Made by a program: the position numbers and the translations under genes. From a virus (lineage: Duplodnaviria > Caudoviricetes), in IMG/VR virus record IMGVR_UViG_3300028549_000507, positions 1 to 64,000 of that record: 64,000 bases of DNA. One strand, given 5' to 3'. Below the pieces are notes generated by a model. That model worked only from the letters and a program-made list of their open reading frames with translations. It had not been told where the DNA came from and did not search any database. The first letter of the stretch is position 1, and every line of letters starts with the position of its first letter. Below, piece after piece: positions 10,895 to 28,071 of the stretch.

Positions 10895-11212
10895 TTAAAT
10901 TAATACGGTTCGAATTGCATCGAATCCTGTAATCAATGCGCCAGTTACAACTGGTGTAATTCCGGTATTAGTTAGTCCACTTAGAATACTTGGAGCAGCC
11001 ATACCTGTAGTTACTGCATTTTTAAAATCTGTTGGTGCAATAATTACTATACCAAGTATACCAACTACGCCAGAAATAACACACTGTAACAGGAAATAAA
11101 GATTAATATCTCCGTATGCTTTAGTTGTAAGTATCTCCAACAGTCTAAGTAAAGAGATGGCCGTCCCTCCAATAAATCCGCCAATGATGTATTCTTTTGC
11201 AGGAATAGTCAT
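10895..11212 (-). CDS. Small multi-pass membrane protein (holin candidate)
   Basis: 105 aa with 2-3 hydrophobic segments and its own late promoter. Confidence 0.4.
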   Translation of the reverse strand: MTIPAKEYIIGGFIGGTAISLLRLLEILTTKAYGDINLYFLLQCVISGVVGILGIVIIAPTDFKNAVTTGMAAPSILSGLTNTGITPVVTGALITGFDAIRTVLI

Positions 11213-11243
11213 ATGGTTCCTCCACGATTAAATATTAGTAATA

Positions 11244-11255
11244 CACTAATATGTT
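11244..11255 (-). promoter_or_regulatory. Late promoter AACA-N6-TG
   Basis: AACATATTAGTG. Confidence 0.65.
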
Positions 11256-11258
11256 AAT

Positions 11259-11828
11259 TTAGATGTGGGGAATAGTTTCGTGTAAATGAGTTATAACTTT
11301 TACTCGTTTATCGAGCTTAAATTCAACGGCATGGTCATAATTGTGCGGAGTGTGTTCATTGCTAACCATAAATAATTTAGCTTTAGAACCTATACAATCT
11401 TTTATTGCGAAAGCATTATCATCCACAATTATAGAAGCGTTAAGGGAATCTACCAAAGGTCGTTTACTCTTCCCATCTGTAAACCAAACTTCTTCGATTT
11501 TTGGAATATGTCTTAGAACCATATCCAAAGTAGCCTTACCGATCGTAGATTCAGCTCGAGCAGTTACACATATTGGCTTATAACCTAACTGAATAAGTTC
11601 ATCAACAAACTCTTTAGCACCTGCAATCGGATTAAAACTTCCCATAATTGTAGGATCATTGAATCTCTTATTGATTAATTCCGCTACATAGCTTGGAATA
11701 TCCATCTTACTTAGATCATAATGTCTTTTAATATGACCTAAGTTAAGTTCATTCAAAGTATCAGTTATAACGGTATTTTTGAATAAAGTATCATCAATAT
11801 CTAATACTGCAATAGGGCGATAAAACAT
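11259..11828 (-). CDS. HAD-superfamily phosphatase (5'(3')-nucleotidase-like)
   Basis: Motif I VLDIDDTL, motif II VTAR, motif IV IVDDN; start moved to the ATG at 11828 (SD AGGA). Confidence 0.75.
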   Translation of the reverse strand: MFYRPIAVLDIDDTLFKNTVITDTLNELNLGHIKRHYDLSKMDIPSYVAELINKRFNDPTIMGSFNPIAGAKEFVDELIQLGYKPICVTARAESTIGKATLDMVLRHIPKIEEVWFTDGKSKRPLVDSLNASIIVDDNAFAIKDCIGSKAKLFMVSNEHTPHNYDHAVEFKLDKRVKVITHLHETIPHI

Positions 11829-11860
11829 AAAGTATCCTAAAGTTAAAGTTAAGTATCTTA

Positions 11861-11872
11861 CAATTAATTGTT
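11861..11872 (-). promoter_or_regulatory. Promoter AACA-N6-TG
   Basis: AACAATTAATTG upstream of the HAD gene. Confidence 0.6.
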
Positions 11873-11905
11873 TCGCATTAAATACAAAAACATATATAAA
11901 CCAAG

Positions 11906-11917
11906 AACATTTTATTG
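11906..11917 (+). promoter_or_regulatory. Late promoter AACA-N6-TG
   Basis: AACATTTTATTG. Confidence 0.65.
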
Positions 11918-11951
11918 TAAGTTTAATTTCCATCAATAAGGGAGATCGTAT

Positions 11952-13886
11952 ATGTTCGACAAGAATAGAACTAGTAACAATCTCAAAGACTTCTATGATA
12001 GTGGATTTGAGGCATCATACGATAGTAATATGTCCCAAATGATTCAAACAATCGTTGAAGAATCTAGAGAACTTTTCAAAAGTATGCTAAACGACAGTAA
12101 CACCAACGTCATAAACACTGCGGATTTTGATACTTTGGCAGAATTCCTTGGGAAATCTTTTACAGAACAACAGGAAGTCTACAAACTCAATAAGAGTTCA
12201 GCTATTAGACCTCTCGAATATTCTACAAGAGACATACTACTCCTTAATGAAGCAGTAATCCCGGGTAAAGACGACATCAAACATTTTTACAGATTTGATT
12301 CAGAGATATCCGTTCCAAGAGTTACCGAAAAATACATACTTCAGATTGTTAAAGATAGTCATAAAGGCGAAACTTACAATAGTTTGAACAATAATCATTC
12401 GGAAATACTCCCTACAGATATGATCGTTCCTATTTCATATTGTATTCCTACACTTGGAAATACTGATAAAATTGAATCTCTTTATAAGAGTAATGTATTG
12501 AATGTGTATACTAATATTGATAAAGATGAGTTCTTCTCATATATTATCAAAATTGTAAGTAGAATTCAATTCCAAACAAATCTCATTGTTATTGATAATT
12601 CCAACTATCTTTCTGTATTTAGATCAGTACTTTCGAACTTCGTATCAGTACTTTCTATGCCGAATATTGTAACAATGATTATTAAGGAACTCGCTGTAAC
12701 AGATGCTGTTAAAGCTGCCGTATTTATTAGTACGTTTTCTTCTATTAATAAATATTATGATCATATTTCAACATATGGAACTGTTGATTATGTGATCAAA
12801 ATGTTTAAGAAGGCTCTGTCTACTACTAAGATAACTGAAACTCATGAAAAAATGTGGCAATCACATAAAAATATCATTGATGTTATAACTGGTTGTAGAG
12901 GTATGGATTCTGTTTATTTCCACATGATATCTGATATCATGATGAATAAATCATTCAAAGATGTAAGTAATAAGAAAGAAGAATTCTTGAATTTCGTTAC
13001 TTCGAATTCTATAATTACGATTCTTATAAATGCGTCTATCTCATGTGGTGGACATAATACTGGAATTAGAGGATTGCATAATCTTATCGGAATTCATCCT
13101 GATGATTTGCGAGTTCTCGATGTTCAAATTCCTGTACTAAATGTTAGTGAGAGTATTATTGAAGCCATGTATACTGCTACAGTGAATAATATGGTTGCAA
13201 TATCTTACTCAACATTCTGCATGAAACATGTTCAGATAGCTAAAGGACGCGTTAAAGATACATCATCATACTCTATTACAGAGTATGGGTACGTAAAAAA
13301 TATCTTGGAAAGTTCTCTTGATATTCTTTATCATAATTCTAGAGTTTTGAGAAGAATGTATAAGAACTTGAATAGAAGAAATGAAGATTGTTGTGTTAAA
13401 TCGTATGAAGAAACCGGTAAATCATTCTTAACAGATCCGTATGAGATTAATATTATTTCAAGATTATCTAATCTACCTACGATTAGACGTATTGTTACGA
13501 ATCTTAACACAATTTCTAATGACTTTGAAACCTTACGTGGAGATCTTGATAAGAATCCTGTGTTTGGTGGAGCGAGTGCTATGACTATGAGTATCTCTGG
13601 AGAATCTGAAGATTACTTCTCTACAGAATTCTTTAAAGCAGATGTATCTTCTGAAAATTTCATTAAGCAGTTTACGAAGAATATCACTGTCGGATCCAAT
13701 GTTATTAAATATTGTGATGATCTCAAAGTTGATACAAGACTTGCAGTTGAATCTGGCGATGATGCTGGTATTACTGATTGTATAAAACGCTACGCGGTTC
13801 TCAAGGATTATGCTAATAGAATTACAAATGAAAGTAATTCTAAGATTGCATCTAAGACTATGAGATATGTTGCTAATTTGCTTTAA
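11952..13886 (+). CDS. Hypothetical late/virion protein
   Basis: 644 aa, late promoter, upstream of the terminase; several S/G/A-x-E sites. Confidence 0.55.
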   Translation: MFDKNRTSNNLKDFYDSGFEASYDSNMSQMIQTIVEESRELFKSMLNDSNTNVINTADFDTLAEFLGKSFTEQQEVYKLNKSSAIRPLEYSTRDILLLNEAVIPGKDDIKHFYRFDSEISVPRVTEKYILQIVKDSHKGETYNSLNNNHSEILPTDMIVPISYCIPTLGNTDKIESLYKSNVLNVYTNIDKDEFFSYIIKIVSRIQFQTNLIVIDNSNYLSVFRSVLSNFVSVLSMPNIVTMIIKELAVTDAVKAAVFISTFSSINKYYDHISTYGTVDYVIKMFKKALSTTKITETHEKMWQSHKNIIDVITGCRGMDSVYFHMISDIMMNKSFKDVSNKKEEFLNFVTSNSIITILINASISCGGHNTGIRGLHNLIGIHPDDLRVLDVQIPVLNVSESIIEAMYTATVNNMVAISYSTFCMKHVQIAKGRVKDTSSYSITEYGYVKNILESSLDILYHNSRVLRRMYKNLNRRNEDCCVKSYEETGKSFLTDPYEINIISRLSNLPTIRRIVTNLNTISNDFETLRGDLDKNPVFGGASAMTMSISGESEDYFSTEFFKADVSSENFIKQFTKNITVGSNVIKYCDDLKVDTRLAVESGDDAGITDCIKRYAVLKDYANRITNESNSKIASKTMRYVANLL

Positions 13887-13891
13887 TATTT

Positions 13892-13921
13892 GAGGTATAG
13901 GGGGAATACTCCCTATACCTC
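13892..13921 (+). terminator. 11-bp hairpin between 11952 and terL (terminator/attenuator)
   Basis: GAGGTATAGGG/CCCTATACCTC with a weak T-tract. Confidence 0.55.
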
Positions 13922-13945
13922 TTATAAAAATACTACGGAGGAATA

Positions 13946-16024
13946 ATGATACACTATACTACAACAAATATGTCATCTTTAAAGATGTCATATTTGCTAA
14001 GTGATATGGGTATAGATAATTGTAATTTTATGTTACGATTAGATAATCCAGAACTACTTAGAGTAGACCCATTCGATGAGAACCTAACCGATTTACAGAG
14101 AGCTATGATTACTCATGAGATAATCCATAACCCTTGGTATTTCTTCAGGGAGATTGTAAGAATCCCTGCAGGCGGAGCACTTATTCGATTTGAATTTCAT
14201 AGAGGAAATATAGCATTAATATGGGCAGTATTAAATGATATAAGTTGTTTTGTAGTATGGCCTAGACAAACGTACAAGACAACAACTATGACATGTATAT
14301 ATGATTACCTGTATTACTGGGGAAGTATGCATAATAAGATGGTATTCATAGCCCATGAAGATTCTATTGTAAAAAAGAATCTTCAAGGAGTTAAGGATAT
14401 TCGTGATAATCTGCCTCCATGGTTAAATCTATATGACAAATCGGATAGAGATAATGAAAAAGAAATGTATAATAGCATTGCCAATAACCGCATTACATGT
14501 AGGGCTCCTGCTCGTAATGAGGATGGTGCTAGAAAAGCTGGTCGAGGTCTTACCACTCCTGCACAATGGTTTGACGAAATTGCGTTCGTTAAGTATATCG
14601 CTGCTATGTATGATAGTATCTCATTTGCATACGCTCAAGCTTCTAAAAGTGCAAAAGAAAATGGCGCACCGCACCACCAGATAATGACAACTACCGCAGG
14701 ATTCCTTAATACGGACGAAGGACAGTGGTCACATAACTTTATGATGAGTTGTGCAGACTTTACTGAGCAATTCTATGATATGGATATCTCTGTAGTTAAA
14801 ACTATTATTGATAATACATCTTTATCGAATTTCTTGAATGTATCATTCATGTATTATGATTTGGGTAAAGATGAGTTCTATCTCGAAGAACAACGTCGAC
14901 GACTCGTTAACTCCCCGACTCCTAAGGATACATTGGATCGAGAAGTTTTAAATAAATGGAAAGATATTAGTACGGAGCACCCACTCGGTCAGGAACGTAT
15001 TGAAAGACTTAATGGACTTGTTAAGGATCCTAATGATTATGCTATAATAAATGATACTTATTCCGTTCGAATTTATGTCGATATGAATACATTTGATATA
15101 TCTAAACCATTGATCGGTGGACTTGACTTGGGAGGAAACCTTCGTGGCGACTTCTCAGCACTTACACTTGTAGACCCTACAGACTTTAAGGTTGTAGCTG
15201 TTATGCGAACTAACTCGCAAAGTACAACTTTGTTTGCATTCGCTATTATAACTATTATGACGGATATGTTTCCAAATATGATACTCTTTCCTGAACGAAA
15301 TTATAATGGCGCTATCATTGATATGATTGTATCATATCTTCCTAATTCTAGAAAAAGAGTATATTTCGAAGGGCCGGATAGACCTGGATTATTCAATAGT
15401 AAGGCTGTACGTCCTGTTCTTTTCAATATTATACTTAGAACAATTGTTGATGAATATGGTGATAGAATCTTTGATAAAACTATTATTACAGAAATATCAG
15501 GTTTGATTCGTACTAGAGCTGGAAGAATTGACCATAAGCCTGGCAAACACGATGATACTTTGATTAGTTTACTTTTGGCATTCTATTTTATATTGTATGT
15601 AGATGATAATGGATTGTATTTTGATAAGAGTATTATACTCTCTAACTTTGAAAAAGGTAATCTTATTGGGGATAAAACTCTAAAAAGTAAATCTAAAGCT
15701 AGAAAGAGTAAACTCGAAGCAATGGGATCACAATATTCTGCACTTATGGATAGTGCTTCTAAGGTATCTAGTTTGGATGATATTGCAAATATTATGTTTG
15801 AAAACCATTATTCTAAACGGGCGAATGTTAGTAGTAAAGTGGAAGTCTTTGAAATTGGAGGGGACAACTTTGATAATATTGAGGAAAGTGATAATATTAG
15901 TATTATCAGGAATGACCTTGATAAGATACGAGATGAGACTACCGTTAGAAGTCACCATGCTGATAATGTTAGGCCATCAAGTTCAAAAGAAAAAGATATG
16001 CTTACTGCTGTGTTTGGTTGGTAA
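13946..16024 (+). CDS. terL: Terminase large subunit
   Basis: NPWYFFREIVRIP, Walker A PRQTYKT, Walker B WFDE, TTTAG motif, nuclease acidic residues GLDLGG..DFS and HDD. Confidence 0.93.
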   Translation: MIHYTTTNMSSLKMSYLLSDMGIDNCNFMLRLDNPELLRVDPFDENLTDLQRAMITHEIIHNPWYFFREIVRIPAGGALIRFEFHRGNIALIWAVLNDISCFVVWPRQTYKTTTMTCIYDYLYYWGSMHNKMVFIAHEDSIVKKNLQGVKDIRDNLPPWLNLYDKSDRDNEKEMYNSIANNRITCRAPARNEDGARKAGRGLTTPAQWFDEIAFVKYIAAMYDSISFAYAQASKSAKENGAPHHQIMTTTAGFLNTDEGQWSHNFMMSCADFTEQFYDMDISVVKTIIDNTSLSNFLNVSFMYYDLGKDEFYLEEQRRRLVNSPTPKDTLDREVLNKWKDISTEHPLGQERIERLNGLVKDPNDYAIINDTYSVRIYVDMNTFDISKPLIGGLDLGGNLRGDFSALTLVDPTDFKVVAVMRTNSQSTTLFAFAIITIMTDMFPNMILFPERNYNGAIIDMIVSYLPNSRKRVYFEGPDRPGLFNSKAVRPVLFNIILRTIVDEYGDRIFDKTIITEISGLIRTRAGRIDHKPGKHDDTLISLLLAFYFILYVDDNGLYFDKSIILSNFEKGNLIGDKTLKSKSKARKSKLEAMGSQYSALMDSASKVSSLDDIANIMFENHYSKRANVSSKVEVFEIGGDNFDNIEESDNISIIRNDLDKIRDETTVRSHHADNVRPSSSKEKDMLTAVFGW

Positions 16025-16055
16025 AAAAAGAAGGAGAGCGTAATGCTCTCCTTCT
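16023..16055. terminator. Terminator, family T2
   Basis: A7-GAAGGAGAGC-GTAAT-GCTCTCCTTC; related copies at 27070, 28041 and 62420. Confidence 0.85.
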
Positions 16056-16211
16056 CTATTTATATCGACAGTCCTCAACGATCTGATCGATCGATCGGGA
16101 ATTATGTTTGTCGATATACTCTTTACAGTATCCCATACATTCCCTATACGATAAAAGAACTCCTCCGAAAATCATGATAAATATAAACCATTTTTTAATA
16201 GAAGCTTTCAT
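16056..16211 (-). CDS. Unannotated 51-aa cassette ORF (MKASIKKWFIFIMIFGGVLLSYRECMGYCKEYIDKHNSRSIDQIVEDCRYK)
   Basis: SD AAGGA plus TTATT-ATG, its own promoter/leader, stop abutting a terminator, N-terminal hydrophobic segment. Confidence 0.75.
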   Translation of the reverse strand: MKASIKKWFIFIMIFGGVLLSYRECMGYCKEYIDKHNSRSIDQIVEDCRYK

Positions 16212-16326
16212 AATAAATCCTTTTCTTGGTACCATAGATAAATATAATTAATTAGAGTGTATGGTATAGTCTTTCTATCCATTCTCCACTATTAAATATA
16301 TACTTTATAATTAATTTAAAAAACTT
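16212..16326 (-). promoter_or_regulatory. Early promoter plus family-A hairpin leader plus CTATGGTAC box
   Basis: TATATTTAATAGT at 16288-16300; 48/49 nt identical to 62742-62790. Confidence 0.85.
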
Positions 16327-16355
16327 AAAAAAGAAGAGGGATTACTCCCTCTTCT
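16327..16355 (-). terminator. Terminator, family T1
   Basis: AGAAGAGGGA-GTAA-TCCCTCTTCT plus T-tract; related copies at 29980, 54214 and 62813. Confidence 0.85.
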
Positions 16356-16362
16356 AATAATT

Positions 16363-16998
16363 TCATTTAAAAGCAATCGACCGAACTACCATTGAACAGA
16401 GTGCCGCCGTAGGATTTAATACTGTCATATGGGGTTCTCCGAACTCTTTAATACCACTCTCTTCGAATACGATAAAGAATGAATTATGATTATAATGCTT
16501 AGCAAGAAGCATTGTATGATATATCATCTGATCTACTTTTGCCAAGTCTTCTTCTTTAAGATAATCTAGAAGATATAAGATTGGCGGGTATTTACCATCT
16601 CTAGTAATAACCTCTCCAAATTTACCTTCATACCATTCACCGATATCCTCAAGTTCAACCGATACGCAGTATGAATCATTGAGAGCTTTAAACTCCCCTT
16701 TAGGTTTATTCTTCTTCATATCAAATCTTGATCTGAAATGAATATTATAACCATTATCGATATATGCATCATCGAACATATATACAATGGTTTCAACGGT
16801 TTCAACGCTAGATTCATTTCCTATCAATCTTAAATTGTTGACATTAGGTTGATTGTTGGGTATCATCATATTAGTAGGATTCATATGCATACCATTGACC
16901 CCAGCATCAATGGGCAATCCTCCCTGACCCATATTAAAATTAACAGACATTGAATGAACGTTCATTCCTCCAAATAAAGACCCTCCAGAACCAAACAT
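16363..16998 (-). CDS. Hypothetical early protein
   Basis: 211 aa, SD AAGGAG, G/N/M-rich N-terminus; upstream TATATATTACTTAATG promoter variant. Confidence 0.65.
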   Translation of the reverse strand: MFGSGGSLFGGMNVHSMSVNFNMGQGGLPIDAGVNGMHMNPTNMMIPNNQPNVNNLRLIGNESSVETVETIVYMFDDAYIDNGYNIHFRSRFDMKKNKPKGEFKALNDSYCVSVELEDIGEWYEGKFGEVITRDGKYPPILYLLDYLKEEDLAKVDQMIYHTMLLAKHYNHNSFFIVFEESGIKEFGEPHMTVLNPTAALCSMVVRSIAFK

Positions 16999-17091
16999 AA
17001 CTTCTCCTTATTAAAGTTGCATCTCATTAAGTAATATATAGACAATTTTATACTTTGAGTATTTATTTGTTACTTTGATCATAAAAAAGTA

Positions 17092-17103
17092 AACATCTTA
17101 TTG
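17092..17103 (+). promoter_or_regulatory. Late promoter AACA-N6-TG
   Basis: AACATCTTATTG. Confidence 0.7.
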
Positions 17104-17131
17104 TATTAAACTTTTACATAGGATTAATTGT

Positions 17132-17770
17132 ATGAGTGTCAACGATTTAGTATCAGTTTCTGTTGAACAAGATAGCGACATGCTCGGTCTTGAAAAAATA
17201 TTACTACAAAACATCACAAACCAAGTAACTGACTTTTATGGCGATTATACTGGGGATGTATCTACTGAAGTCGATTATATACGGGAGTATATTGAGAATC
17301 GGTTTGAGGGAGATTTTGAGTATATTATTGAAAACTTTGAAACAGTCTGTAATGTGAGTAATCTCGAGGAAAGCTTCGATACAATATCTAGAGGTATTGT
17401 AGATATATTGAAATCTCACGTTGGAATTTGTTTTGATCTTGATAGAGAGAATGTATACTTCTCTGATATCTATAGTGTCTATTGTCTATTTGTACTTGCA
17501 TTTAGAAATACTTTAACAGTATCAACTCTAAATCATTACAGAAAATATAGACAGAAAATTAATATTGCACAGGTTACTATTGATAAGATCTGTGATTATT
17601 GTTTGAGTGATGAGTTCTCTCCAACTGATGAGTTTATTTCAAATTTAGCTCAATCAGGAGAGTTGACAGCTTCAGAAATCCAATCCAAAATTGACGATAA
17701 TGTAATATTTATAGATGAATTTGTTTTCTCATCTTACATATACAGATTCGTTACCAATTCTTTATCGTAA
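17132..17770 (+). CDS. Hypothetical late protein
   Basis: 212 aa, acidic, late promoter. Confidence 0.6.
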   Translation: MSVNDLVSVSVEQDSDMLGLEKILLQNITNQVTDFYGDYTGDVSTEVDYIREYIENRFEGDFEYIIENFETVCNVSNLEESFDTISRGIVDILKSHVGICFDLDRENVYFSDIYSVYCLFVLAFRNTLTVSTLNHYRKYRQKINIAQVTIDKICDYCLSDEFSPTDEFISNLAQSGELTASEIQSKIDDNVIFIDEFVFSSYIYRFVTNSLS

Positions 17771-17781
17771 GGGCGATATAA

Positions 17782-18525
17782 ATGGAAGAAGTATTTAAGA
17801 AGTTCTTTACACATAAACCTGATGATAAGTCACTGGTTCTAAAAGAACCTTATTATGCAGAGATCAGAATTCCTATAGAAATGTTTGACAAAGGTATAGC
17901 TAATATATTCGGTGATACTGTCAGTACTTTCTTCTTTGTGGATATTTATATTTGGGATGAGTATACAGACGTTCCTCTTATTAAAGATGCTACAAAAATA
18001 AATATAAGAATTCCAAACATACTATCATCTAGACCCACTAGAATAAAATATGATAGTAAGAATTCTGAGAATATATTAGAGTTTATGCCCAACGACCAAG
18101 TCATAATGACAACTATGGTTCCTAAGAAATCTGAAGTTGTTGTTGAATTCTTTGAGATAATGTTGGATGGTAAGATTCCTGATGATATACCATATAATGA
18201 AATATCTGGTTATTTCGAGGAATGTGCTAGAATTAATGGAGTTAACCTTCGGGCAAACTCTTTATATGTAGACGCAATGGTTGCTTCTATATGTAGAGAT
18301 CCCAATAATAACTCTAGACAATTCAAAGAACTTATAGCGGAGAATCCTAAAGTTTCAATGTATTCTAGAAAAGTTGTTAATGCGGACTTAATACCGTCAA
18401 TGACTTCTCAATTTAACGCTATAACAAATAGTAATCCTAAATACGGTATCACATCGTCTATAGGAGCTGTTCGTAGTGGGGATATGGAAATCATTGAAAC
18501 TGACATTGACGTTGCAATTAAATAA
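17782..18525 (+). CDS. Putative virion RNA polymerase subunit, beta-prime C-terminal fragment
   Basis: NGVNLRANSLYVDAMVASICR resembles QGVKINDKHIEVIVRQMLR, and TSQFNAITNSNPKYGITSSI resembles [20 protein letters not shown] of bacterial RpoC (aligned by eye). Confidence 0.55.
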   Translation: MEEVFKKFFTHKPDDKSLVLKEPYYAEIRIPIEMFDKGIANIFGDTVSTFFFVDIYIWDEYTDVPLIKDATKINIRIPNILSSRPTRIKYDSKNSENILEFMPNDQVIMTTMVPKKSEVVVEFFEIMLDGKIPDDIPYNEISGYFEECARINGVNLRANSLYVDAMVASICRDPNNNSRQFKELIAENPKVSMYSRKVVNADLIPSMTSQFNAITNSNPKYGITSSIGAVRSGDMEIIETDIDVAIK

Positions 18526-18561
18526 ATAAATTGAAATTAACATTATTAATACCCATATAAT

Positions 18562-18573
18562 AACATTGTAATG
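18562..18573 (+). promoter_or_regulatory. Late promoter AACA-N6-TG
   Basis: AACATTGTAATG upstream of the sheath gene. Confidence 0.7.
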
Positions 18574-18622
18574 GTACATTTGTTATATTATGTGTAGTAA
18601 AATTTAAACTCGGAGGTTAATC

Positions 18623-20485
18623 ATGGGACTGATGCATGATAGCTTAGTTAGAACTACACTCGTAGACAATTCAATCGCCATCCCGACCCCAGATCCAATC
18701 CAGACCGGTTTTACATTCCTTCAGCCTTTCTTTGCAAAAAGAGGACGTCAGAATGAAATTATCCGTAAAGGTGGTATCGGGGCTTTTGAACGTGAGTACG
18801 GCAATGATGTCGACAACGTTACAAAGTATGGTCACGGTGGACTTATCGCTAAAGCAGTATTGCAGGGCGGTGGAATTGTTGACGCGTGTCGACTTATGCC
18901 AGATGATGCGACAAAATCTGGATTGGTCATTTCGCTTATTCTTGATGAAAATGGAACTGATCCAAAAATCACAATCCATGCAGGAGCCGTAGATTCAACA
19001 AAGACTACTGCGGTAAATCTTGTTAAAGATGATGCATTCAAACTCGTTGCGGCTGACACAACTACAGTTAAACGTTACCCGATTATCTTGCTTGAATCTA
19101 CAAGTACTGGTTCTTTTGGTAATTCATTTACTGCAAAACTTTCATTGGATACTACTAGAGATGGTAAAAATCCTGATGGAAGACGTTATGTTCTTGATCT
19201 TGCTGATGCTGGTAATAGAATCGGTGATAAATTTGAAGTAATTAGCTTCTCATTTAATCCTGATGCTAAAACAACTCCATCAAGTGAAGCACTTGATAGT
19301 TTTGACGTTGTGTTTGATTCGTACAAACGTGCATTCGGAATTCCTGTAGACGCTACTTATTCTCCTGAGAATTTTGAAGCACTTCTTACAGATCTCGAAA
19401 CAGATCATGAAACAGCAGTATATGAAGCAGTTGGAGCTACAGATGAAGAATCTTATGCTACTAAAAAATGGCTGCTTGACCCTATTACTGGTACAATTTT
19501 CGATGAAGAAAATGATTACACTGGATTTGATACTTTTGCACTTCCTACTGAACTTACGTTCTCTGGTGGAGATGATGCCGGGGTATTCGATAATGATGCG
19601 GAGGGACAGAAGCTCAGATCTGATCTTCTTGTAGACTTCTATGAAGGTAACATTGATAAAAATATCTATGATGCAAGAATAATCGATTGTGGTATTACTC
19701 TCGATGCATGGTGGCCTGCTGAAGTTAAAGCTGCTATGGTTGGAACATTCGGAAAAGAAGTTCGTGATGACATTTATGTTATCGCTGACCTTGGTCCTGA
19801 TGCGACTACTGCTGCAAGTGCAACAAGTGCTGCCGCGACTCTTATTGCCGGTGTATCTTCTACTTATGGAATGGTTTCTATCAATTATCATAATGGTAAA
19901 ACAAGAGATAGAGCTCGTAATATCAGAACTTCTGGTAACTATGAGATCGCGAAATCACTCCCTAAACTGTATAGAACTAGAGGAGCATTTACTGTTCATG
20001 CTGGATATCTTTCCGGTCGTGTTGAGTATATGGATTTCGAATACTTCCCTAAAATCTACAAAAACGATTCTGAGATCAAGCCTCTTAAGAAGCAGAAACT
20101 TAGATTCGCAATGCAGCTCGATAGAAGTGGAGACCTTTTCTATATGTCCGATTCTAGCCAGTATAATACAGATTTCTCAGTACTTGGTTCTGAAAGAAAT
20201 CTTATATTTGCCGGTGACGTTATGCGTACATTTAAGAAAGTTATGGCTAAGTATGCGTTCCATCCTGAGAATTTCGAAGGTGCAAAACGCGACGCAACTA
20301 CAGAACTTAATACAATACTTTCTACAAGTTGGTTCCCTGCGTCTATTCCTGTTTCGTTCGAAATCTTCCAAACTCGTAATGATAAAATTAATAAAACTGC
20401 GACTGTTGATGTCGGTATTACCTTCCCTGATGTCGTTGAGACTTGGAAAGTTACCATTACAGCCAACAGACAGCCTTTGGTTTAG
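18623..20485 (+). CDS. Tail sheath protein
   Basis: 620 aa; FFAKRG, SGGDDAG, ITLDAWWPAEVK and a C-terminal ATVDVGITF..VETWKVTI sheath pattern; followed by the tube gene. Confidence 0.8.
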   Translation: MGLMHDSLVRTTLVDNSIAIPTPDPIQTGFTFLQPFFAKRGRQNEIIRKGGIGAFEREYGNDVDNVTKYGHGGLIAKAVLQGGGIVDACRLMPDDATKSGLVISLILDENGTDPKITIHAGAVDSTKTTAVNLVKDDAFKLVAADTTTVKRYPIILLESTSTGSFGNSFTAKLSLDTTRDGKNPDGRRYVLDLADAGNRIGDKFEVISFSFNPDAKTTPSSEALDSFDVVFDSYKRAFGIPVDATYSPENFEALLTDLETDHETAVYEAVGATDEESYATKKWLLDPITGTIFDEENDYTGFDTFALPTELTFSGGDDAGVFDNDAEGQKLRSDLLVDFYEGNIDKNIYDARIIDCGITLDAWWPAEVKAAMVGTFGKEVRDDIYVIADLGPDATTAASATSAAATLIAGVSSTYGMVSINYHNGKTRDRARNIRTSGNYEIAKSLPKLYRTRGAFTVHAGYLSGRVEYMDFEYFPKIYKNDSEIKPLKKQKLRFAMQLDRSGDLFYMSDSSQYNTDFSVLGSERNLIFAGDVMRTFKKVMAKYAFHPENFEGAKRDATTELNTILSTSWFPASIPVSFEIFQTRNDKINKTATVDVGITFPDVVETWKVTITANRQPLV

Positions 20486-20495
20486 GAGATAACTA

Positions 20496-21551
20496 ATGAG
20501 TTCAGTAAAATTTGACAAAGCAAAAGATGGTAATACTACCGTCACTGGTATCTACGGAAACCAGAATAACGCTAAACTTAGAGGCTGGGAAAGTGGTACT
20601 ACTGGTGTTGGTGGAGATGTTCGAGTTCGCCTCGGTCATCAACAGGGCGTTCCGTCGCTCGACCATAACACAGTATCTATCGACGAACCATTGCGTCTTG
20701 GTCGATTTATTTGCGTATGGTTGAGACTTCCTACCTTTATTCACGCTGACGTACGTTCTTATTGGAACTACTTCTTCCAGGATAAAGTTCTTGAGTTTAA
20801 CGGCCTTGCAGATAATGAAATTGGAGTAATGTCTCGTACCTCTGGAGCGGTTGGTCGTCAGGATGAATATGCTGGTTTCTACAAAGAAAACAACAATAAA
20901 TTCCAGATCAAAGTTCCAGAAGTAAAAGGTTCTCCTGTTCGTAAATTGTGTAAATACTATGTCACAGGTCTTTCTGACTCTGTAACCGGTGTTGCACATT
21001 TCCACGGAAATGCAGACCTTCGTTTCAGTAAGATTAACTATGGCGGAGACTTCCTCTACGTTCTTCTTGGACCTACTATGCGTCCTGATGATATTGAATT
21101 TGCATGTGCATATTTCAATTGTTTCATGACAAAAGACTATATCGGTCATTTGAATAGTGGTGCTATTGGTGAACCTGGTGATGCGGGTCTTACTTTCGAT
21201 ATCGAATTCGCAGGTTACTATGTGCAGAATAATACAATCAACAAACTCGCAATGAAAATTGTTGAAGCTGTTGGACTGTATAAAGACTGTGTTGAAGACA
21301 TTGTTCTTCCTGCATATGTATATGAGTCATTCCTTAAAGATGGTAATGCTCCAAACCTTGCAGAAGCGTATGGTGTATATATCGATGCTAAACTCGCAAG
21401 AGCTAAAACTAGCGCAGATACAGCGGCACTTACTACTGGTCTTGGGGATTTCGTTACCGACTATGCTGTCGGAAACACTCCTCAGACTACAACTGTTCTT
21501 AGCGAAACAAATACCCCAAGTGGTCCAGACATCGTTGTTCCAACAGTTTAA
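20496..21551 (+). CDS. Tail tube protein
   Basis: Directly after the sheath, highly-expressed codon usage, beta-rich pattern ending FDIEFAG. Confidence 0.7.
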   Translation: MSSVKFDKAKDGNTTVTGIYGNQNNAKLRGWESGTTGVGGDVRVRLGHQQGVPSLDHNTVSIDEPLRLGRFICVWLRLPTFIHADVRSYWNYFFQDKVLEFNGLADNEIGVMSRTSGAVGRQDEYAGFYKENNNKFQIKVPEVKGSPVRKLCKYYVTGLSDSVTGVAHFHGNADLRFSKINYGGDFLYVLLGPTMRPDDIEFACAYFNCFMTKDYIGHLNSGAIGEPGDAGLTFDIEFAGYYVQNNTINKLAMKIVEAVGLYKDCVEDIVLPAYVYESFLKDGNAPNLAEAYGVYIDAKLARAKTSADTAALTTGLGDFVTDYAVGNTPQTTTVLSETNTPSGPDIVVPTV

Positions 21552-21569
21552 TACTCTATGTATTATAGA

Positions 21570-21598
21570 AGAAAGGTGGGGAAACCCACCTTTCTTTT
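21570..21598 (+). terminator. Intrinsic terminator after the tube gene
   Basis: GAAAGGTGGG-GAAA-CCCACCTTTC-TTTT. Confidence 0.9.
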
Positions 21599-21610
21599 AA
21601 TTTATCAATT

Positions 21611-21622
21611 AACATTTAAATG
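21611..21622 (+). promoter_or_regulatory. Late promoter AACA-N6-TG
   Basis: AACATTTAAATG. Confidence 0.7.
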
Positions 21623-21653
21623 AAAGTAAATAATTTATTATGTAGGGATAGTT

Positions 21654-22325
21654 ATGGAAGAAATCTCTGGAGTAACTTCTGATGTCAAATCGAATGATAA
21701 TATAGTTATCTCCTCAAAAGTTAGTGGAGATATAGTGCCGTTCTTTAAAGAACAAGATTTCATGCTAGACGATAAGACTTACATAAGTATGATTAAGAAT
21801 ATCGAGTGGCAAATACGTTCTAGTAAAGAATACAGTGCCTATATTAGATATTTAAAAGAGGATATAACTCCCCCTTTAAATCATTGTATGGTTTATAGTA
21901 ATATTACGGATGATCTTGCTCCTATAGAAATGCATCATGGTCCTATATTTACATTATTTGATTATGTAGAGATAGTTATGATATATCAATTCAAAAAGAA
22001 TATACCATTTTCATCATCTTACATATATCATCTCGTCATGGAAGAGCATCGATTGGGACATGTTCAAACTGTAATGTTATCTGAAGCAGTGCATAAAGCT
22101 ATACATAATACTAAAAAAGGATATGATGCTAAATTCTTAGATATAAAGATGGCTCATGGAGATATTTTAGGATTCCTTAATAGATATTACGAAGGATTAA
22201 CTCTAGGTCATATTGGTAAAATAGATAAATATCTTAAATCTTACGAGCAGAATGTTAGTGAAAAGAGTGATGGATTCTTTGAAGAATTTATAACGAAATG
22301 GTCAAAAGAAATTCTAGCTGTGTAA
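21654..22325 (+). CDS. HNH-like protein
   Basis: HCMV..IEMHHGP..VMLSEAVHKAIH pattern resembling a His-Me finger. Confidence 0.5.
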   Translation: MEEISGVTSDVKSNDNIVISSKVSGDIVPFFKEQDFMLDDKTYISMIKNIEWQIRSSKEYSAYIRYLKEDITPPLNHCMVYSNITDDLAPIEMHHGPIFTLFDYVEIVMIYQFKKNIPFSSSYIYHLVMEEHRLGHVQTVMLSEAVHKAIHNTKKGYDAKFLDIKMAHGDILGFLNRYYEGLTLGHIGKIDKYLKSYEQNVSEKSDGFFEEFITKWSKEILAV

Positions 22326-22340
22326 GTATAGGGGTTATAA

Positions 22341-24929
22341 ATGAGTATAGAAAATGAAATATTACTAAAAGGAGGAAAGGTTGTATTGGATAATCTACTA
22401 TCCTTTACAGATTCCTTAGTAATAAAGAATTCTCAGGAAGCCGAAATCGGTGAAACAAATAGATCCTTTGAACATTTTATGTTTTATAATAGATGTTTGG
22501 AAGGATTTACTAATTTTAGTGATCACGGTATCCCTGAAAGCGAGATTCCTACGGAATATATTGGTGTATCAATTGGGACATTAGATGAACTTACTGCTCG
22601 TGGTGATTGGAGATTAAATCTCATTGTAAAAAATCGTAGACAACAGTTTGTGAGAAATTATATAGATTTAAATAACTATTACGCAACCTTAACAGGTAAA
22701 CCGAGTTCCACATCTCAATATATTCCAGTTCCAAACTTAGATGGAACATATGTATTATATCTACATATGGTTAATATTCAAGATCACCCTAATACTTTTA
22801 AGAAGATTTTTGTAGATAATGAATTAGAAGTATATAAGAATAGGTATAATTTTGAATATCTTAAATTTATGAGATATAACCTAACTGTCAAGCAGGTTAG
22901 AGATTCAGAAAATTTTGATATACTTTGGTATAATGATTCTATATTAGATGATTATGATTTGAATTTATTCCTATCATCATATTATGAAATTAGATCATTT
23001 ATACTAGAAAATAAATACATTAAAAATCTGGAAGAGATATATGAGCACTACTCCAATTTTCAGGCTAGTGTTATCATATTTGGAACTCTTCAAAAGTTTT
23101 TCAATGGTATGATTGATAAGTTTGCTAAGAGAGTTTATACGGATAAAGAGATCTACGATATACTAGATTCTCACAATCTATCATCTCTTAAGAGGGTTAA
23201 TCTGCCTATTCTAAGAAGACTTGTTGAGAATATCGATGAGACTCTATCATATAGAGGAACTGAATATATCCTGAAACTTCTTCCGAATATTGTTGGAAAA
23301 GATTCGATGTTGAGTATAAAAAGGTACGATGTAGTCAAAACATTCAAAACCAACGTAACCAGCGTCGTATCTTTGGATAATATTGATGCTGATGGTAACC
23401 CTATCTCTTATTCAGATAACGTCGATTTATCATTTATCGATAGAAATATCGTTGAAAGTGATGGGTATAAATTTACTTCTATAAACAATAAACGATTTGT
23501 TCCATATGATGAATTCGTTTCATCTGATCCTACTTGGGGAGCAAATGGTTTATATGATTCAAATGTTGGTAAAAGTAATGCTATAAAGAAAATTAAGTAC
23601 GATCTGTTGAGGATGAATTTTGATAGATTGAGTACTAAGTATCTAAGTGTGGTTAATATTTTAAATGTTGACGATACTATGAAATCTATAGAATATAAAT
23701 TAGGTTTACTTATACAATATTATGGTGGATTTAGAAGTCTTACTTCATTTGAAATTGTAGATGGTGTTAAGTTTAAAACTTTAGATCTATTTATGATGGC
23801 TTCATATATAGTCAATCATATGAAGAAAATTGCATCAAAAGATATAATCGATTTAAACCTCTTCAGATATGAAGGGGTTATGAAATTGAATTATATAGAT
23901 AATTATATCGATTATGCTAAAACTTTAAAGTTTACACCTACGAATGTAGACAATTTTCATACAGAATATGTAACTTCAATAAACCCTGATACCGGAGATA
24001 TTGAGGAAATACCTATAGCAGTTAGAAATGTCGGATCAGTAGATCGTTCTCCGGTAAGTATTATGGAATACTTAACTGAAGAAGAGGTTTCTAAGTATGT
24101 ATATAGCTTCAATTCTTCGGAGTCTTTTGATTCTATAATGAACTCCTTTGTTAAAAATTATAAAATATTCAATAAGTTGCATGAGAAATCTATGGAATCT
24201 AATGAATATAATAAGGCGATGGCTTGGAAAACATTATATGAAAGTTTTAAAGTTGATATAGATAACGCATTTGATATAGAATGTTTTACATATTCGGAAT
24301 ATTTTAGTAAAGATCCCGAAATGAAGAATATATTTGATAGCATATCAACATTATCTGATGATGGTTTGAATAGTGCATTCCTCAAATACTTTAGAAACTT
24401 TAGAAGATCTGTATCTGAATTGGTTCATGAAGATGAAAATCTAATAGATTACGAATATAATTCAGTGATAGGATTAGATTTAAGACTCATGGTTGAAGCA
24501 TTTGTTTCGATATACCTAGAACTCAGAGATGTTAGTATCGTTCTCAATATGGGAGATTACCCCAATAATATCTACCAACTCATGGATAGATATCGTATAA
24601 ATTTCTCATTTAAGATGAATGATTATTATAACATTCGCGAAGATTGTATAATAAAAGTATTCTTAAAGCTATCAGATACTTTTGAAATAACTCAAAAATA
24701 CGATTTAAACATAACTATGGATGAGTTTGAAGATTACATTATCAAGGATGATAAAGTTACTATTAAAGCAATAATTAATCCGGATGAAATGTATAGTATC
24801 GAGGATTACTTTGAGATTCAAGAAGAATCCGATATAGATGATTCATATTCTATTGGTGAAGCATTAACAATTCATCCGTATGTATATGAAATCGATCAAA
24901 ATGGTATTAAAATTAAAAAATTTCTATAA
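22341..24929 (+). CDS. Virion structural protein, baseplate wedge-like
   Basis: NNYYATLTGKP and LSYRGTEYILK (the xKGT motif of gp7/gpI-like wedges); tail-module context. Confidence 0.5.
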   Translation: MSIENEILLKGGKVVLDNLLSFTDSLVIKNSQEAEIGETNRSFEHFMFYNRCLEGFTNFSDHGIPESEIPTEYIGVSIGTLDELTARGDWRLNLIVKNRRQQFVRNYIDLNNYYATLTGKPSSTSQYIPVPNLDGTYVLYLHMVNIQDHPNTFKKIFVDNELEVYKNRYNFEYLKFMRYNLTVKQVRDSENFDILWYNDSILDDYDLNLFLSSYYEIRSFILENKYIKNLEEIYEHYSNFQASVIIFGTLQKFFNGMIDKFAKRVYTDKEIYDILDSHNLSSLKRVNLPILRRLVENIDETLSYRGTEYILKLLPNIVGKDSMLSIKRYDVVKTFKTNVTSVVSLDNIDADGNPISYSDNVDLSFIDRNIVESDGYKFTSINNKRFVPYDEFVSSDPTWGANGLYDSNVGKSNAIKKIKYDLLRMNFDRLSTKYLSVVNILNVDDTMKSIEYKLGLLIQYYGGFRSLTSFEIVDGVKFKTLDLFMMASYIVNHMKKIASKDIIDLNLFRYEGVMKLNYIDNYIDYAKTLKFTPTNVDNFHTEYVTSINPDTGDIEEIPIAVRNVGSVDRSPVSIMEYLTEEEVSKYVYSFNSSESFDSIMNSFVKNYKIFNKLHEKSMESNEYNKAMAWKTLYESFKVDIDNAFDIECFTYSEYFSKDPEMKNIFDSISTLSDDGLNSAFLKYFRNFRRSVSELVHEDENLIDYEYNSVIGLDLRLMVEAFVSIYLELRDVSIVLNMGDYPNNIYQLMDRYRINFSFKMNDYYNIREDCIIKVFLKLSDTFEITQKYDLNITMDEFEDYIIKDDKVTIKAIINPDEMYSIEDYFEIQEESDIDDSYSIGEALTIHPYVYEIDQNGIKIKKFL

Positions 24930-24946
24930 ACGATTTGGAGAATTAA

Positions 24947-25792
24947 ATGAATAAAATCGAAGATAAGTACGGTATTCATTCCGACGTTAAAATTTACGAC
25001 TTGAATGGCACTCTTTTGCAACATAAAAAAAATATTGTTGCACTTGGCGGACGTATTGCTCTTGAAAACATCTTCAAAAGATCTACAAGCGTTGGAGCAT
25101 ATCATAAGACTATTCGCGAGCTTCTCATAATGCAGAAAGCATCAGAATATACAACTGCTACAGATTTTGAAGTTCTTGAAACCCCAGATACACAGGTTAT
25201 TGGAGACTATTTTGATAGATCTATCAAATACTTCTGTATTGGTAATGGTGGTATTGAAAATACAACTACTGTACAGATGGCTAAACCGAAACCTCATGAG
25301 ACAAGACTTTATAACTTTGTTCCATTCCGATGCGTTACGGTTGCTTCTGGCGGACTTCCTGCGGGAGAAGTAGATCGTTATGCATTGAAATGTAAAGAGA
25401 AGATTGATGGCGTTGACTATTATACTTACTACTTCAAGAAATTTGAAGATTCTACAAATAACAATATTAAAGTTGTCAAATCGGATGGGGTTGATTATGA
25501 GCCTGAATATTCTGATAGTGATTTCAATAATGTTGGTATGCGTAATGAGTATATCCATTCATTCTATGAGATTTCTCTGAATATCGATGCCGTTGATTTT
25601 AAAGAGTGGTATAAAGCCAAACATGATAGCCAACTTACAGATGCATTCACTACGGAATTCGGTCTTGTTATTGGTAATAATGTTGGTAACACTGTTAAAA
25701 ATGCCGAGCTGTTCTCTAAGCTTGTACATTCGCCAATCAATCTCAATCTTGAGAATAATGGTGCAATGATCGTTTATACAGTGTATTCTTAA
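24947..25792 (+). CDS. Virion structural protein (baseplate/fibre attachment-like)
   Basis: NIVALGG..YFCIGNGG..TEFGLVIG..ELFSKL pattern; tail-module context. Confidence 0.45.
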   Translation: MNKIEDKYGIHSDVKIYDLNGTLLQHKKNIVALGGRIALENIFKRSTSVGAYHKTIRELLIMQKASEYTTATDFEVLETPDTQVIGDYFDRSIKYFCIGNGGIENTTTVQMAKPKPHETRLYNFVPFRCVTVASGGLPAGEVDRYALKCKEKIDGVDYYTYYFKKFEDSTNNNIKVVKSDGVDYEPEYSDSDFNNVGMRNEYIHSFYEISLNIDAVDFKEWYKAKHDSQLTDAFTTEFGLVIGNNVGNTVKNAELFSKLVHSPINLNLENNGAMIVYTVYS

Positions 25793-25798
25793 TCTATA

Positions 25799-25837
25799 AA
25801 TTTATATAGGGCGGTCTTTCGGCCCCCTATATAAATT
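25799..25837. other. Long intergenic hairpin immediately before the SD of the RNAP gene
   Basis: AATTTATATAGGG/CCCTATATAAATT (13 bp) plus an inner GGTC-TTTC-GGCC stem; no T-tract. Confidence 0.8.
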
Positions 25838-25847
25838 AGGAGGAACT

Positions 25848-27071: not shown

Positions 27072-27107
27072 AAAAAAAGAAGGAAGCGTAATGCTTCCTT
27101 CTTTTTT
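27070..27107. terminator. Bidirectional terminator, family T2
   Basis: A-tract-GAAGGAAGC-GTAAT-GCTTCCTTC-T-tract. Confidence 0.85.
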
Positions 27108-27108
27108 C

Positions 27109-27369
27109 CTAACATTCAATTCCGTACGTTAGGAAGTACTGCATTTCGTGAAAGCTTCTCATAGCTTTCACTACTGATGGAATAGTTGAGACATACGTTT
27201 CAACGATATCCCATGATCCTGTTACTGGGTCGTGAAACATATCGGCCAGGCAGATGATATCATCTGAATTCTGGGGGTAGTTCCCAGAATACATCGTGGT
27301 GTGATTTTCAGATGACGTGGCTGTAACGAAATTTGAAAAGTCAGAATTGGTTTCGATAGTTCTTTTCAT
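27109..27369 (-). CDS. 86-aa cassette ORF with hairpin-dense coding sequence
   Basis: GGATCTATT-ATG start, family-C leader, stop next to a terminator. Confidence 0.7.
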   Translation of the reverse strand: MKRTIETNSDFSNFVTATSSENHTTMYSGNYPQNSDDIICLADMFHDPVTGSWDIVETYVSTIPSVVKAMRSFHEMQYFLTYGIEC

Positions 27370-27488
27370 AATAGATCCAATCCGGGCGTATTGTTCGCCC
27401 TATAATATAATTAATAGAAGGTAAGTTAACACTCGTTACTTCCTTCTTTGTTCACTATTAAATATACACATCAATAATCGTTTATTAC
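27370..27488 (-). promoter_or_regulatory. Early promoter plus family-C two-hairpin leader
   Basis: TATATTTAATAGT at 27454-27466; 57/58 nt identical to 54150-54207. Confidence 0.85.
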
Positions 27489-27519
27489 AAAAAAAAAGAG
27501 GTGACTAATGTCACCTCCC
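27489..27519 (-). terminator. Intrinsic terminator
   Basis: GAGGTGAC-ATTA-GTCACCTC plus T-tract. Confidence 0.85.
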
Positions 27520-27523
27520 ATTT

Positions 27524-27931: not shown

Positions 27932-28040
27932 AATAAGTCCGTTCCTAGTACTCTTGAGTACCATAGAAAAATGTTATAAGATATAGATCAGTCAATCTAT
28001 TCTAGTATTAAATATATAATCTATAATTCATTTAAAAAAT
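27932..28040 (-). promoter_or_regulatory. Early promoter plus family-B hairpin leader plus CTATGGTAC box
   Basis: TATATTTAATACT at 28004-28016; ATAGAT/ATCTAT stem; near-identical to 29331-29420 and 43213-43265. Confidence 0.85.
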
Positions 28041-28071
28041 AAAAAAAAAGAGGAAGCACAATGCTTCCTCC
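28041..28071 (-). terminator. Terminator, family T2
   Basis: GAGGAAGCA-TTG-TGCTTCCTC plus T-tract. Confidence 0.85.

Follow-up and report, generated by a model that had tools for sequence, protein, structure and literature searches.

How did two loci of one phage genome come to share nearly the same regulatory frame around unrelated genes? The loci lie on the minus strand at 16.0–16.4 kb and 62.4–62.8 kb of the window, by which we mean the whole stretch of DNA analyzed, the first 64 kb (64,000 nucleotides) of a 200-kb record. Judged by its gene content, the phage belongs among the AR9/phiKZ-like jumbo phages and encodes multisubunit RNA polymerases (RNAPs) of its own. Its TerL is 30–33% identical to those of PBS1/AR9-like, Staphylococcus S6-like, and phiKZ-like jumbo phages, and the ~72%-complete record contains two β-like and one β′-like RNAP matches; because of these TerL and RNAP genes, we group the phage with AR9/phiKZ-like jumbo phages and not with T4-type myoviruses.

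The original prediction described a common frame at both loci, consisting of an upstream terminator (T1), a leader (leader A), a ribosome-binding block, and a downstream terminator (T2). Alignment recovered every one of these features on the minus strand, and the parts of the two units are as follows.

16332–16355, minus strand: T1, stem-loop AGAAGAGGGA-GUAA-UCCCUCUUCU with a GNRA loop, scored as a terminator, with a T-run to 16327
16301–16326, minus strand: UP1-type AT-rich upstream element, TTTTTTAAATTAATTATAAAGTA
16287–16300, minus strand: putative early promoter box, TATATTTAATAGTG, whose last G (16287) is the presumed +1
16254–16287, minus strand: leader A hairpin HP1, GGAGAAUGGAUAGAAAGACUAUACCAUACACUCU, a 5′-terminal stem-loop in the MFE fold, 33/34 identical to the 62k copy
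16212–16253, minus strand: AU-rich linker, CTATGGTAC (16229–16237), and RBS block CAAGAAAAGGATTTATT, from alignments
16023–16055, minus strand: T2, first copy, GAAGGAGAGC-AUUAC-GCUCUCCUUC plus U7, scored as a terminator
62818–62837, minus strand: T1-family terminator after nrdD, with a GCAA loop, scored as a terminator
62777–62817, minus strand: UP2-type upstream element plus box, 41/41 identical to 27453–27493
62744–62777, minus strand: leader A hairpin HP1, second copy
62709–62722, minus strand: hairpin HP2, GGUAC-AGGU-GUGCC, from folding, directly upstream of the SD
62421–62453, minus strand: T2, second copy, AAGGGGAGC-AUUGC-GCUCUCCUU plus a U-run, scored as a terminator

The order within a unit is UP element, box, HP1, AU-rich linker, HP2 (lost at 16k), GGAU-N-UAUU-AUG, ORF, and terminator, the intrinsic terminator beginning 1–4 nt past the stop codon. 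The reported identity of 48/49 between 16252–16300 and 62742–62790 was reproduced. Fourteen of these 49 "leader" bases belong to the promoter box, which is common to ~20 units genome-wide, leaving a leader-specific identity of 34/35; the 34-mer leader core occurs only at the 16k and 62k loci, with 0 copies expected in shuffles. Both copies continue with CTATGGTAC (16229–16237 and 62718–62726) and CAAGAAAAGGAT(T/C)TATT-ATG, the RBS block being identical at 20 of 21 positions. The extra sequence noted in the 62k copy is an 8-nt insert, AGGTGTGC, at 62710–62717, and corresponds to the loop and 3′ arm of HP2; in the 16k copy the 3′ arm is deleted. T2 is 29/31 identical between the loci (16023–16053 vs 62423–62453), and T1 is 82% identical (16328–16355 vs 62812–62839). 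We use frame A for the combination of leader A and T2, which is known in three copies: 16k, 62k, and one in a sister strain. In all three, similarity ends at the ATG and returns 0–3 nt from the stop codon.

These parts differ in how far they are confined to frame A. T1 is indeed present at both loci, but it proved to lie outside the mobile frame: its core recurs 12 times across the 200-kb genome as a generic terminator family, the 16k copy is the terminator of a 211-aa gene, and in the cassette-free sister-strain contig L020 an identical stem is the only one separating TerL from that gene. T2 proper, defined by the stem GAAGGAGAGC, is frame-specific and occurs within this genome only at the 16k and 62k loci; the 16k copy is bidirectional and also follows TerL, on the plus strand. 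The box has 9 exact and ~10 near-exact intergenic copies (≤2 mismatches), is overrepresented upstream of genes, and nearly always precedes an RBS and an ORF; visual inspection shows a G+C-rich hairpin and T-run within ~45 nt upstream of 13 of 19 copies. The units are also mosaic. The UP1 element at 16k is 97% identical to the 43k unit over −18 to +15 and is common to the 28k, 29.4k, and 59k units; the 62k and 27k units match over the whole of UP2 and box and then diverge into leader A and leader C, respectively; and the 16k T1 is identical to the 29.9k T1 (28/28).

The conserved part of the promoter is the 14-nt AT-rich box, unlike −35/−10 hexamers, and the ORF51 unit at 16k has no sigma-70-like site upstream. 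UP2-type promoters, including that of the 62k unit, have a weak sigma-70-like match (TTGTAA-18-TATATT, 9/12), so use of host RNAP may apply to them. The box resembles the AR9 virion-RNAP (vRNAP) early promoter, as judged against the consensus quoted in PMC5312081, and is probably a vRNAP early promoter with its start at the last G. Promoter identity, start site, early expression, and terminators are predictions made from sequence.

Within this frame the two loci carry different cargo ORFs.

16056–16211, minus strand: ORF51, cargo 1, an orphan peptide with an N-terminal hydrophobic segment, from translation
62459–62692, minus strand: ORF77, cargo 2, an orphan soluble protein

Homology between the two ORFs had been set beforehand as the refuting observation for cargo exchange; BLASTP found none, with no alignment even at E ≤ 100, in agreement with the claim that the cargos are unrelated. 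When each cargo was searched separately, no homologues emerged: ORF51 matches only itself among 5.8 billion clusters, ORF77 has no homologue in the protein collections searched, and neither has a family in Pfam or PHROG. Weak phmmer matches of ORF77 (E = 5e-6 to 5e-4) lie in repetitive parts of giant proteins, of which two or more are rich in Ig-like domains, and its AlphaFold2 model, computed without an alignment, has a pLDDT of 47. With a GC content of 45.7%, compared with 33.9 ± 3.6% for the genome's ORFs, ORF77 ranks in the top 0.84% of genome windows and looks foreign in composition, whereas ORF51 (33.3%) is typical of the genome. The third cargo, ORF96 of the sister strain, encodes a 96-aa orphan unrelated to both. 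The re-use of one frame with different cargo is therefore real. Separately, we observed a Logan contig with an NrdA variant in which an 84-aa gene lies 124 nt upstream, the geometry of a GTG-extended ORF77; the gene may be ORF77 or other cargo.

The sister strain, at 92.9–95% nucleotide identity to the window, allows cassette changes to be located directly, starting with one segment at 16k.

16039–16338 (equivalently 16027–16326), minus strand: 300-nt segment found only in the window phage, from BLAST and MAFFT comparison of L020 with the window

The whole 16k cassette is absent from the sister strain, as a 300-nt indel between 10–12-nt direct repeats in terminator tails; the flanking direct repeat CTTCTTTTTT leaves 12 nt of uncertainty in where the segment is placed. 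The cassette-free junction of L020 is the same in contigs L021 and L022, and in the more distant relatives L005 and L017 just one terminator separates TerL from the 211-aa gene. The 29.9k cassette is also absent from the sister strain, with a similar T-run junction and a single terminator left, and the ORF77-nrdA-nrdB block is missing as well. In the slot upstream of gyrB (54.2k), whose flanks are orthologous, the window has leader C-ORF86-T3 and the sister strain has leader A-ORF96-T2 (contig L027). Altogether, ~5 of the 10 early-cassette slots examined differ between these two ~93%-identical strains. In the between-strain events, entire promoter/leader, ORF, and terminator cassettes were moved or replaced, with breakpoints mapping to terminator T-tracts or the promoter box and not to the interval from ATG to terminator; no orthologous slot among the strains compared had the same leader with a different ORF. 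The proposed exchange of cargo between ATG and terminator is thus borne out insofar as one frame carries three unrelated ORFs, but the strain events that can be seen exchange whole cassettes.

Beyond the sister strain, a contig from a freshwater run (X6) links T2, leader A/T1, and a leader-B promoter in one chain, another stretch taking the place of ORF51; it may be a further frame-A cassette and is best treated as a lead only. Two apparent contig joints, 16286→27453 and 16220→27408, were rejected as rearrangements, being 62k and 54.2k contigs that map onto paralogous parts of the 11000–30500 region. Against 50,697 phage records, neither megablast with a 5-kb stretch around the 16k cassette nor blastn with the 16k frame gave a match. 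Exact-pattern scans of IMG/VR for the frame gave no real match, the one hit (L031) sitting inside a GC-rich coding region and being attributed to chance, and an NrdA-based locus search of IMG/VR found no locus. Box copies in a 47-kb relative (G001) were not above control.

Our results favor a model, which we consider likely, of autonomous early units built from a few re-used families of parts, with turnover of whole cassettes and at least three ORFs gained by frame A. In this model, the 16k and 62k loci would be autonomous early transcription units whose regulatory parts fall into few sequence families recombined variously around the genome, and these parts, because they are repeated, would act as recombination sites. 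Crossovers in terminator tails or T-tracts and in the promoter box would lead to the insertion, deletion, or replacement of whole cassettes, a turnover that can be likened to that of the PeSL (promoter-early stem-loop) cassettes of T4-type phages and the morons of lambdoid phages. Frame A would have gained its three or more unrelated ORFs most likely through crossovers at short punctuation common to early units, namely SD-AUUAUG on one side and the stop codon plus terminator arm on the other, with selection retaining only translatable, properly terminated products. Hairpins at the 5′ end are generic to box units, the first 40 nt past the box folding at a mean of −7.3 kcal/mol compared with −3.9 for genome 40-mers (Mann–Whitney p = 2e-4), and in leader C a G-C pair of HP2 is replaced by A-U, a compensatory change; the hairpins may serve in mRNA stabilization or translation control. 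A swap from ATG to terminator is suggested by the three-cargo pattern. Boundaries of homology at ATG and stop are expected anyway in a compact genome whose regulatory parts abut ORFs.

Functional conservation alone could also explain much of the resemblance, if leader A and T2 formed a cis-regulatory device kept on a small early regulon, such as an operator bound by one of the phage's translational regulators, an element for stability, or a coupling uORF; similarity would then tell little about recent recombination or mobility. Consistent with such a device, identity is concentrated in the hairpins and SD, and the linker between leader hairpin and RBS is just ~60–65% identical among frame copies. 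An A-U to G-U change in HP1 of the sister-strain copy keeps the pair, the same copy has the HP2 stem with another loop (UAAG), and the T2 stem persists across the three copies, each with a loop of its own. Both the structural covariation and the association of leader A with T2 come from three copies and would reflect very few events. A uORF running from an AUG at +6 to a UGA overlapping the main AUG is open in both window copies, but it has no usable SD and is truncated in the third copy, and HP2 is itself deleted at 16k. The leader reaches no family's gathering score in Rfam, and the sub-threshold matches overlap or adjoin terminators. The same device on three unrelated ORFs in three slots still needs recombination, and the cassettes themselves come and go between strains. 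We regard conservation of function as an unlikely explanation on its own.

A bolder version of exchange would make frame A a portable expression context, with a two-hairpin 5′ UTR, a possible coupling uORF, and a matched, co-selected terminator, into which ORFs are exchanged with codon precision by microhomology at SD-AUUAUG and at the stop codon plus terminator. We hold this version to be doubtful. If true, frame A would be a recombinase-free gene-cassette system, integron-like in function, that supplies a nucleus-forming jumbo phage with orphan early genes.

That a whole cassette was duplicated long ago, with ORFs diverging past recognition between conserved flanks, is highly improbable. The frames are paralogous, and ORF51 and ORF96 share an N-terminal hydrophobic segment and a terminal Lys. 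However, beyond the failure of ORF51 and ORF77 to align, an all-versus-all blastp among 12 cargos gave no match, the three products are 51, 77, and 96 aa long, and GC differs (33% vs 46%). The linker, presumably the least constrained part, retains enough identity that coding homology would show at such divergence, and the 16k cassette, which a 93%-identical strain lacks, was inserted recently. We give equally little credence to integron-like or other site-specific recombination with terminator hairpins as sites. Imperfect inverted repeats do bound the cassettes, and whole units are gained and lost at fixed kinds of sites, but no Phage_integrase (PF00589) or Resolvase (PF00239) domain was found in the 200-kb record (~72% complete), the junctions are simple T-run microhomology and not a defined core site, and the cassettes have their own promoters, which integron cassettes do not. 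Finally, chimeric assembly joins that mimic shared frames or missing cassettes are extremely improbable even though metagenome contigs often break at these repeats (T1 is where L021 and L022 stop, and another contig starts at the box), since contigs assembled from other samples, and Logan contigs from additional runs, contain window-type cassettes at 100% or 99.9% identity, a JGI contig spans the cassette-free junction with two Logan contigs agreeing from both sides, and a repeat of just 10 nt cannot cause an assembly to lose 300 nt.

In jumbo phages, most early genes are small orphans with presumed roles in host takeover and counter-defense, and to our knowledge their fast turnover is poorly documented. 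The turnover of whole early cassettes between strains extends PeSL- and moron-type modular evolution to phages that probably rely on promoters for their own RNAPs. The finding also supplies compact natural parts (promoter box, 5′ hairpin leaders, and terminators) for engineering such phages and accounts for the breaks of metagenome assemblies at these sites.

Several known systems invite comparison. Early vRNAP promoters have been described in AR9 (Lavysh et al. 2017, PMC5312081) and in phiKZ-related jumbo phages (201phi2-1, PMC11512511). As in these sources, the element here is extended, highly conserved, and AT-rich, has a conserved G a few bases downstream, and recurs in dozens of copies upstream of small hypothetical genes in phages that encode multisubunit RNAP homologues. 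The motif itself differs, TATATTTAATAGTG here compared with the AR9 consensus AAATATATATTAT-N6-G+1 quoted in PMC5312081, and the start here is predicted from sequence. Text searches of PMC5312081 and PMC11512511 turned up neither families of 5′ hairpin leaders nor between-strain turnover of cassettes.

Integron cassettes offer a functional parallel, in that one expression context serves many unrelated small ORFs and units are gained and lost; here, however, no integrase was found in the 200-kb record, the cassettes lack an attC-like core, and each has its own promoter.

Morons, reportedly described in lambdoid and other phages by Juhala and Hendrix, have host-type promoters active in lysogens. 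Like a moron, the 16k cassette brings its own promoter and terminator with its gene and separates two genes that are neighbors in related phages, and ORF77 is atypical in base composition, although ORF51 is not. Unlike morons, the units here appear to be driven by early promoters of the phage's own type, the phage itself is presumably lytic, and the regulatory parts are repeated families re-used with different ORFs.

The PeSL cassettes of T4-type phages (Arbiol et al. 2010, PMC2839356; Comeau et al. 2014, PMC4122927) differ from the present units in several respects. The promoter here is an AT-rich box resembling the vRNAP promoters of AR9/phiKZ-like phages and not a host sigma-70 consensus, the stem-loop is a separate terminator upstream of the promoter with GNRA-type loops, junction microhomology is only 10–12 nt, and the lineage is a jumbo phage with its own RNAPs and not a T4-type myovirus. 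The present phage also has further conserved 5′-UTR families that carry two hairpins, and frame A joins a particular leader to a particular terminator. Nonetheless, both systems have repeated intergenic composites of terminator and early promoter, mostly upstream of ORFans, and an nrdD neighbor. In both, an ORFan between two motifs corresponds to a single motif in a close relative, here at the 16k and 29.9k slots, and units are replaced between orthologous flanks, here at the 54.2k slot.

The re-use of one regulatory frame with different cargos is real and now extends to three cargos. Frame A, defined as leader A plus terminator T2, occurs in the window in two early units, 16k and 62k (units are named by their kb position), both on the minus strand.

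16252-16300, minus strand: promoter box and leader A of the 16k unit
62742-62790, minus strand: promoter box and leader A of the 62k unit
62710-62717, minus strand: 8-nt insertion AGGTGTGC in the 62k copy, relative to the 16k copy

By pairwise alignment and short-word BLAST among all units, box and leader are identical at 48/49 positions, CTATGGTAC is common to both copies, the RBS block, with ATTATG at its end, is 20/21 identical, and T2 is 29/31 identical. The alignment thus verified the four-part likeness and the 62k insertion described in the original prediction. We found the 34-mer core of the leader at these two loci only (shuffles expect 0). The 51-aa and 77-aa cargos (ORF51 and ORF77) are unrelated, as had been claimed: BLASTP fails to align them, even with a cut-off of E<=100. 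Contigs from other samples hold identical copies of both cassettes, which are therefore not assembly artefacts.

The window forms the first 64 kb of a 200,251-bp IMG/VR record, 72% complete and 33% GC, whose TerL (13946-16024) is 30–33% identical to those of PBS1/AR9-like, Staphylococcus S6-like and phiKZ-like jumbo phages, and which encodes two beta-like and one beta'-like RNAP genes. The 14-nt box TATATTTAATAGTG has nine exact occurrences and ~20 intergenic sites at <=2 mismatches, nearly all on the same strand as a downstream RBS and ORF. Because it resembles the early promoter of the AR9 virion RNAP, AAATATATATTAT-N6-G(+1) (PMC5312081), we read it as a predicted early promoter, with its final G as the probable transcription start.

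Early units share a common anatomy. An intrinsic terminator lies <=~45 nt upstream of about two thirds of boxes; the commonest core, GAGGGAGNAATCCCTC (T1, with GNRA loops), has 12 genome copies and is therefore generic. Folding places a hairpin right after the box in almost every unit, the first 40 nt averaging −7.3 kcal/mol versus −3.9 for random genome 40-mers (p = 2e-4), and the conserved 34 nt of leader A are exactly one such 5'-terminal hairpin (HP1). A second hairpin (HP2) adjoins the SD. In the 62k copy its sequence is GGUAC-AGGU-GUGCC, so that AGGTGTGC makes up the loop and 3' arm, both lost from the 16k copy. In leader C the equivalent hairpin carries a compensatory change from G-C to A-U, and GGA-N(3-5)-ATTATG closes the 5' part of all units. 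Rfam gave no family match.

Leader A also contains an open frame.

16208-16282, minus strand: leader A open frame, 16k copy, 24 codons
62689-62772, minus strand: leader A open frame, 62k copy, 27 codons

The AUG that opens it lies 6 nt from the presumed start. In the window copies the closing UGA shares bases with the main AUG (AUGA), and the 1+8-nt length difference between them leaves it in frame; the copy in a sister strain (L027:9680-9736) ends after 18 codons, within the HP2 loop. It has no usable SD. The frame could be a coupling uORF or a product of chance, the rough odds of its staying open being ~0.1.

Regulatory parts are mosaic. In short-word BLAST among units, upstream element and box are identical at 41/41 positions in 62k and 27k (62777-62817, 27453-27493), and directly past the box 62k continues into leader A and 27k into leader C. 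The 16k unit has an upstream element matching the 43k unit at 97%, the T1 of 29.9k (28/28) and the leader of 62k. Leaders B (28k, 29.4k, 43k) and C (27k, 54.2k) also precede unrelated ORFs; T2 proper is confined within this genome to 16k and 62k. At ~4 positions the sister strain's 27k orthologue differs from the window's 41-nt stretch; set against the 41/41 identity within the window, this suggests recent gene conversion between these dispersed promoters.

Sister-strain contigs, reached via 90% protein clusters, have orthologous DNA 92.9–95% identical to the window. In one (L020), a 211-aa gene is followed by T1, whose T-run leads directly into the end of TerL. The 16k unit is missing whole, from upstream element through T2 stem, as a 300-nt indel with ends within a 10–12-nt direct repeat, CTTCTTTTTT, made by the T1 and T2 tails; contig ends L021 and L022 agree with this cassette-free junction. 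In more distant relatives (TerL 60–66% identical), TerL and the homologue of the 211-aa gene are likewise separated by one bidirectional terminator. Given this absence and the single terminator, the most parsimonious reading is that the 16k cassette was inserted in the lineage of the window, with T1 as the resident terminator of the site. T1 does lie upstream as predicted, but as a generic and apparently resident element rather than a part of the frame.

The 29.9k cassette (ORF156) is also absent from the sister strain, with a junction in a T-run. Upstream of gyrB, between orthologous flanks, the window holds leader C-ORF86-T3 and the sister strain T1-UP2-box-leader A-RBS-ORF96-T2. In this third copy of frame A, HP1 is retained with a single A-U to G-U change, as are the stems of HP2 and T2, each with a different loop; ORF96 is an orphan with no relation to the other cargos. 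The sister 62k slot contains an NrdD that has no intein, T1, an orphan ORF of 317 aa, the decayed remains of an upstream element and box, and a 3' nrdB remnant, and the strain lacks ORF77, nrdA and nrdB (class I RNR; window ~59100-62720, L027:3683-5140). The window nrdD (1046-aa product) carries an intein (Pfam Intein_splicing; ~63813-64000, on to ~64851 of the genome); the 693-aa sister NrdD lacks these 1039 nt, hence an intein presence/absence polymorphism. In the slot of window 27071-27500, which there holds leader C and ORF86, sister L025:5915-6060 (minus strand) has a box, ~110 nt and a T2-like terminator. No ORF there is convincing, and the stretch may encode a small non-coding early RNA.

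The ORF51 product carries a hydrophobic segment at its N-terminus and that of ORF77 is soluble; no homologue of either turned up among 5.8 billion clusters. A full phmmer scan with ORF77 gave only weak matches, all in repeat stretches of giant proteins, among them at least two rich in Ig-like domains. The GC of ORF77 (45.7%; GC3 44.9%; genome ORFs 33.9 ± 3.6% and 26.5 ± 7%), in the top 0.84% of windows, fits an origin separate from its AT-rich frame. Other cargos were as follows.

53846-54106 and 27109-27369, minus strand: leader-C ORFs of exactly 86 aa, unrelated in sequence, one product multi-pass membrane (GC 45.7%), the other soluble (GC 40.7%)
43094-43180, minus strand: 29-aa hydrophobic peptide (MKVATKLIIIAVTCV...) of leader-B cassette 43k, then a T2-like terminator, GAAGGATAGC-UAUA-GCUAUCCUUC
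27071-30010: hyperplastic stretch of four consecutive early cassettes (27k, 28k, 29.4k, 29.9k); clustering of proteins at 90% leaves each cargo a singleton, whereas variants exist of the flanking 407-aa and 598-aa genes, and two cargos have ~78%-identical sister-strain homologues, against 93–95% nucleotide identity in the flanks

The original prediction took precise exchange of cargo between ATG and terminator as the simplest reading. Re-use of the frame with three cargos stands, but what strain variants show directly is that whole cassettes, from promoter to terminator, were gained, lost or replaced; the junctions lie in the tails of terminators or at the box, not between ATG and terminator. 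In the three known frame-A copies, similarity stops at the ATG and restarts 0–3 nt from the stop codon, which would fit precise exchange; such boundaries would also arise if selection alone acted on compact regulatory parts. The 72%-complete record yielded no tyrosine or serine recombinase. The same gain, loss and replacement of whole units is described for morons, a pattern that the cassettes of this phage share. It is likewise the pattern of whole-cassette turnover described for the PeSL cassettes of T4-type phages (PMC2839356).
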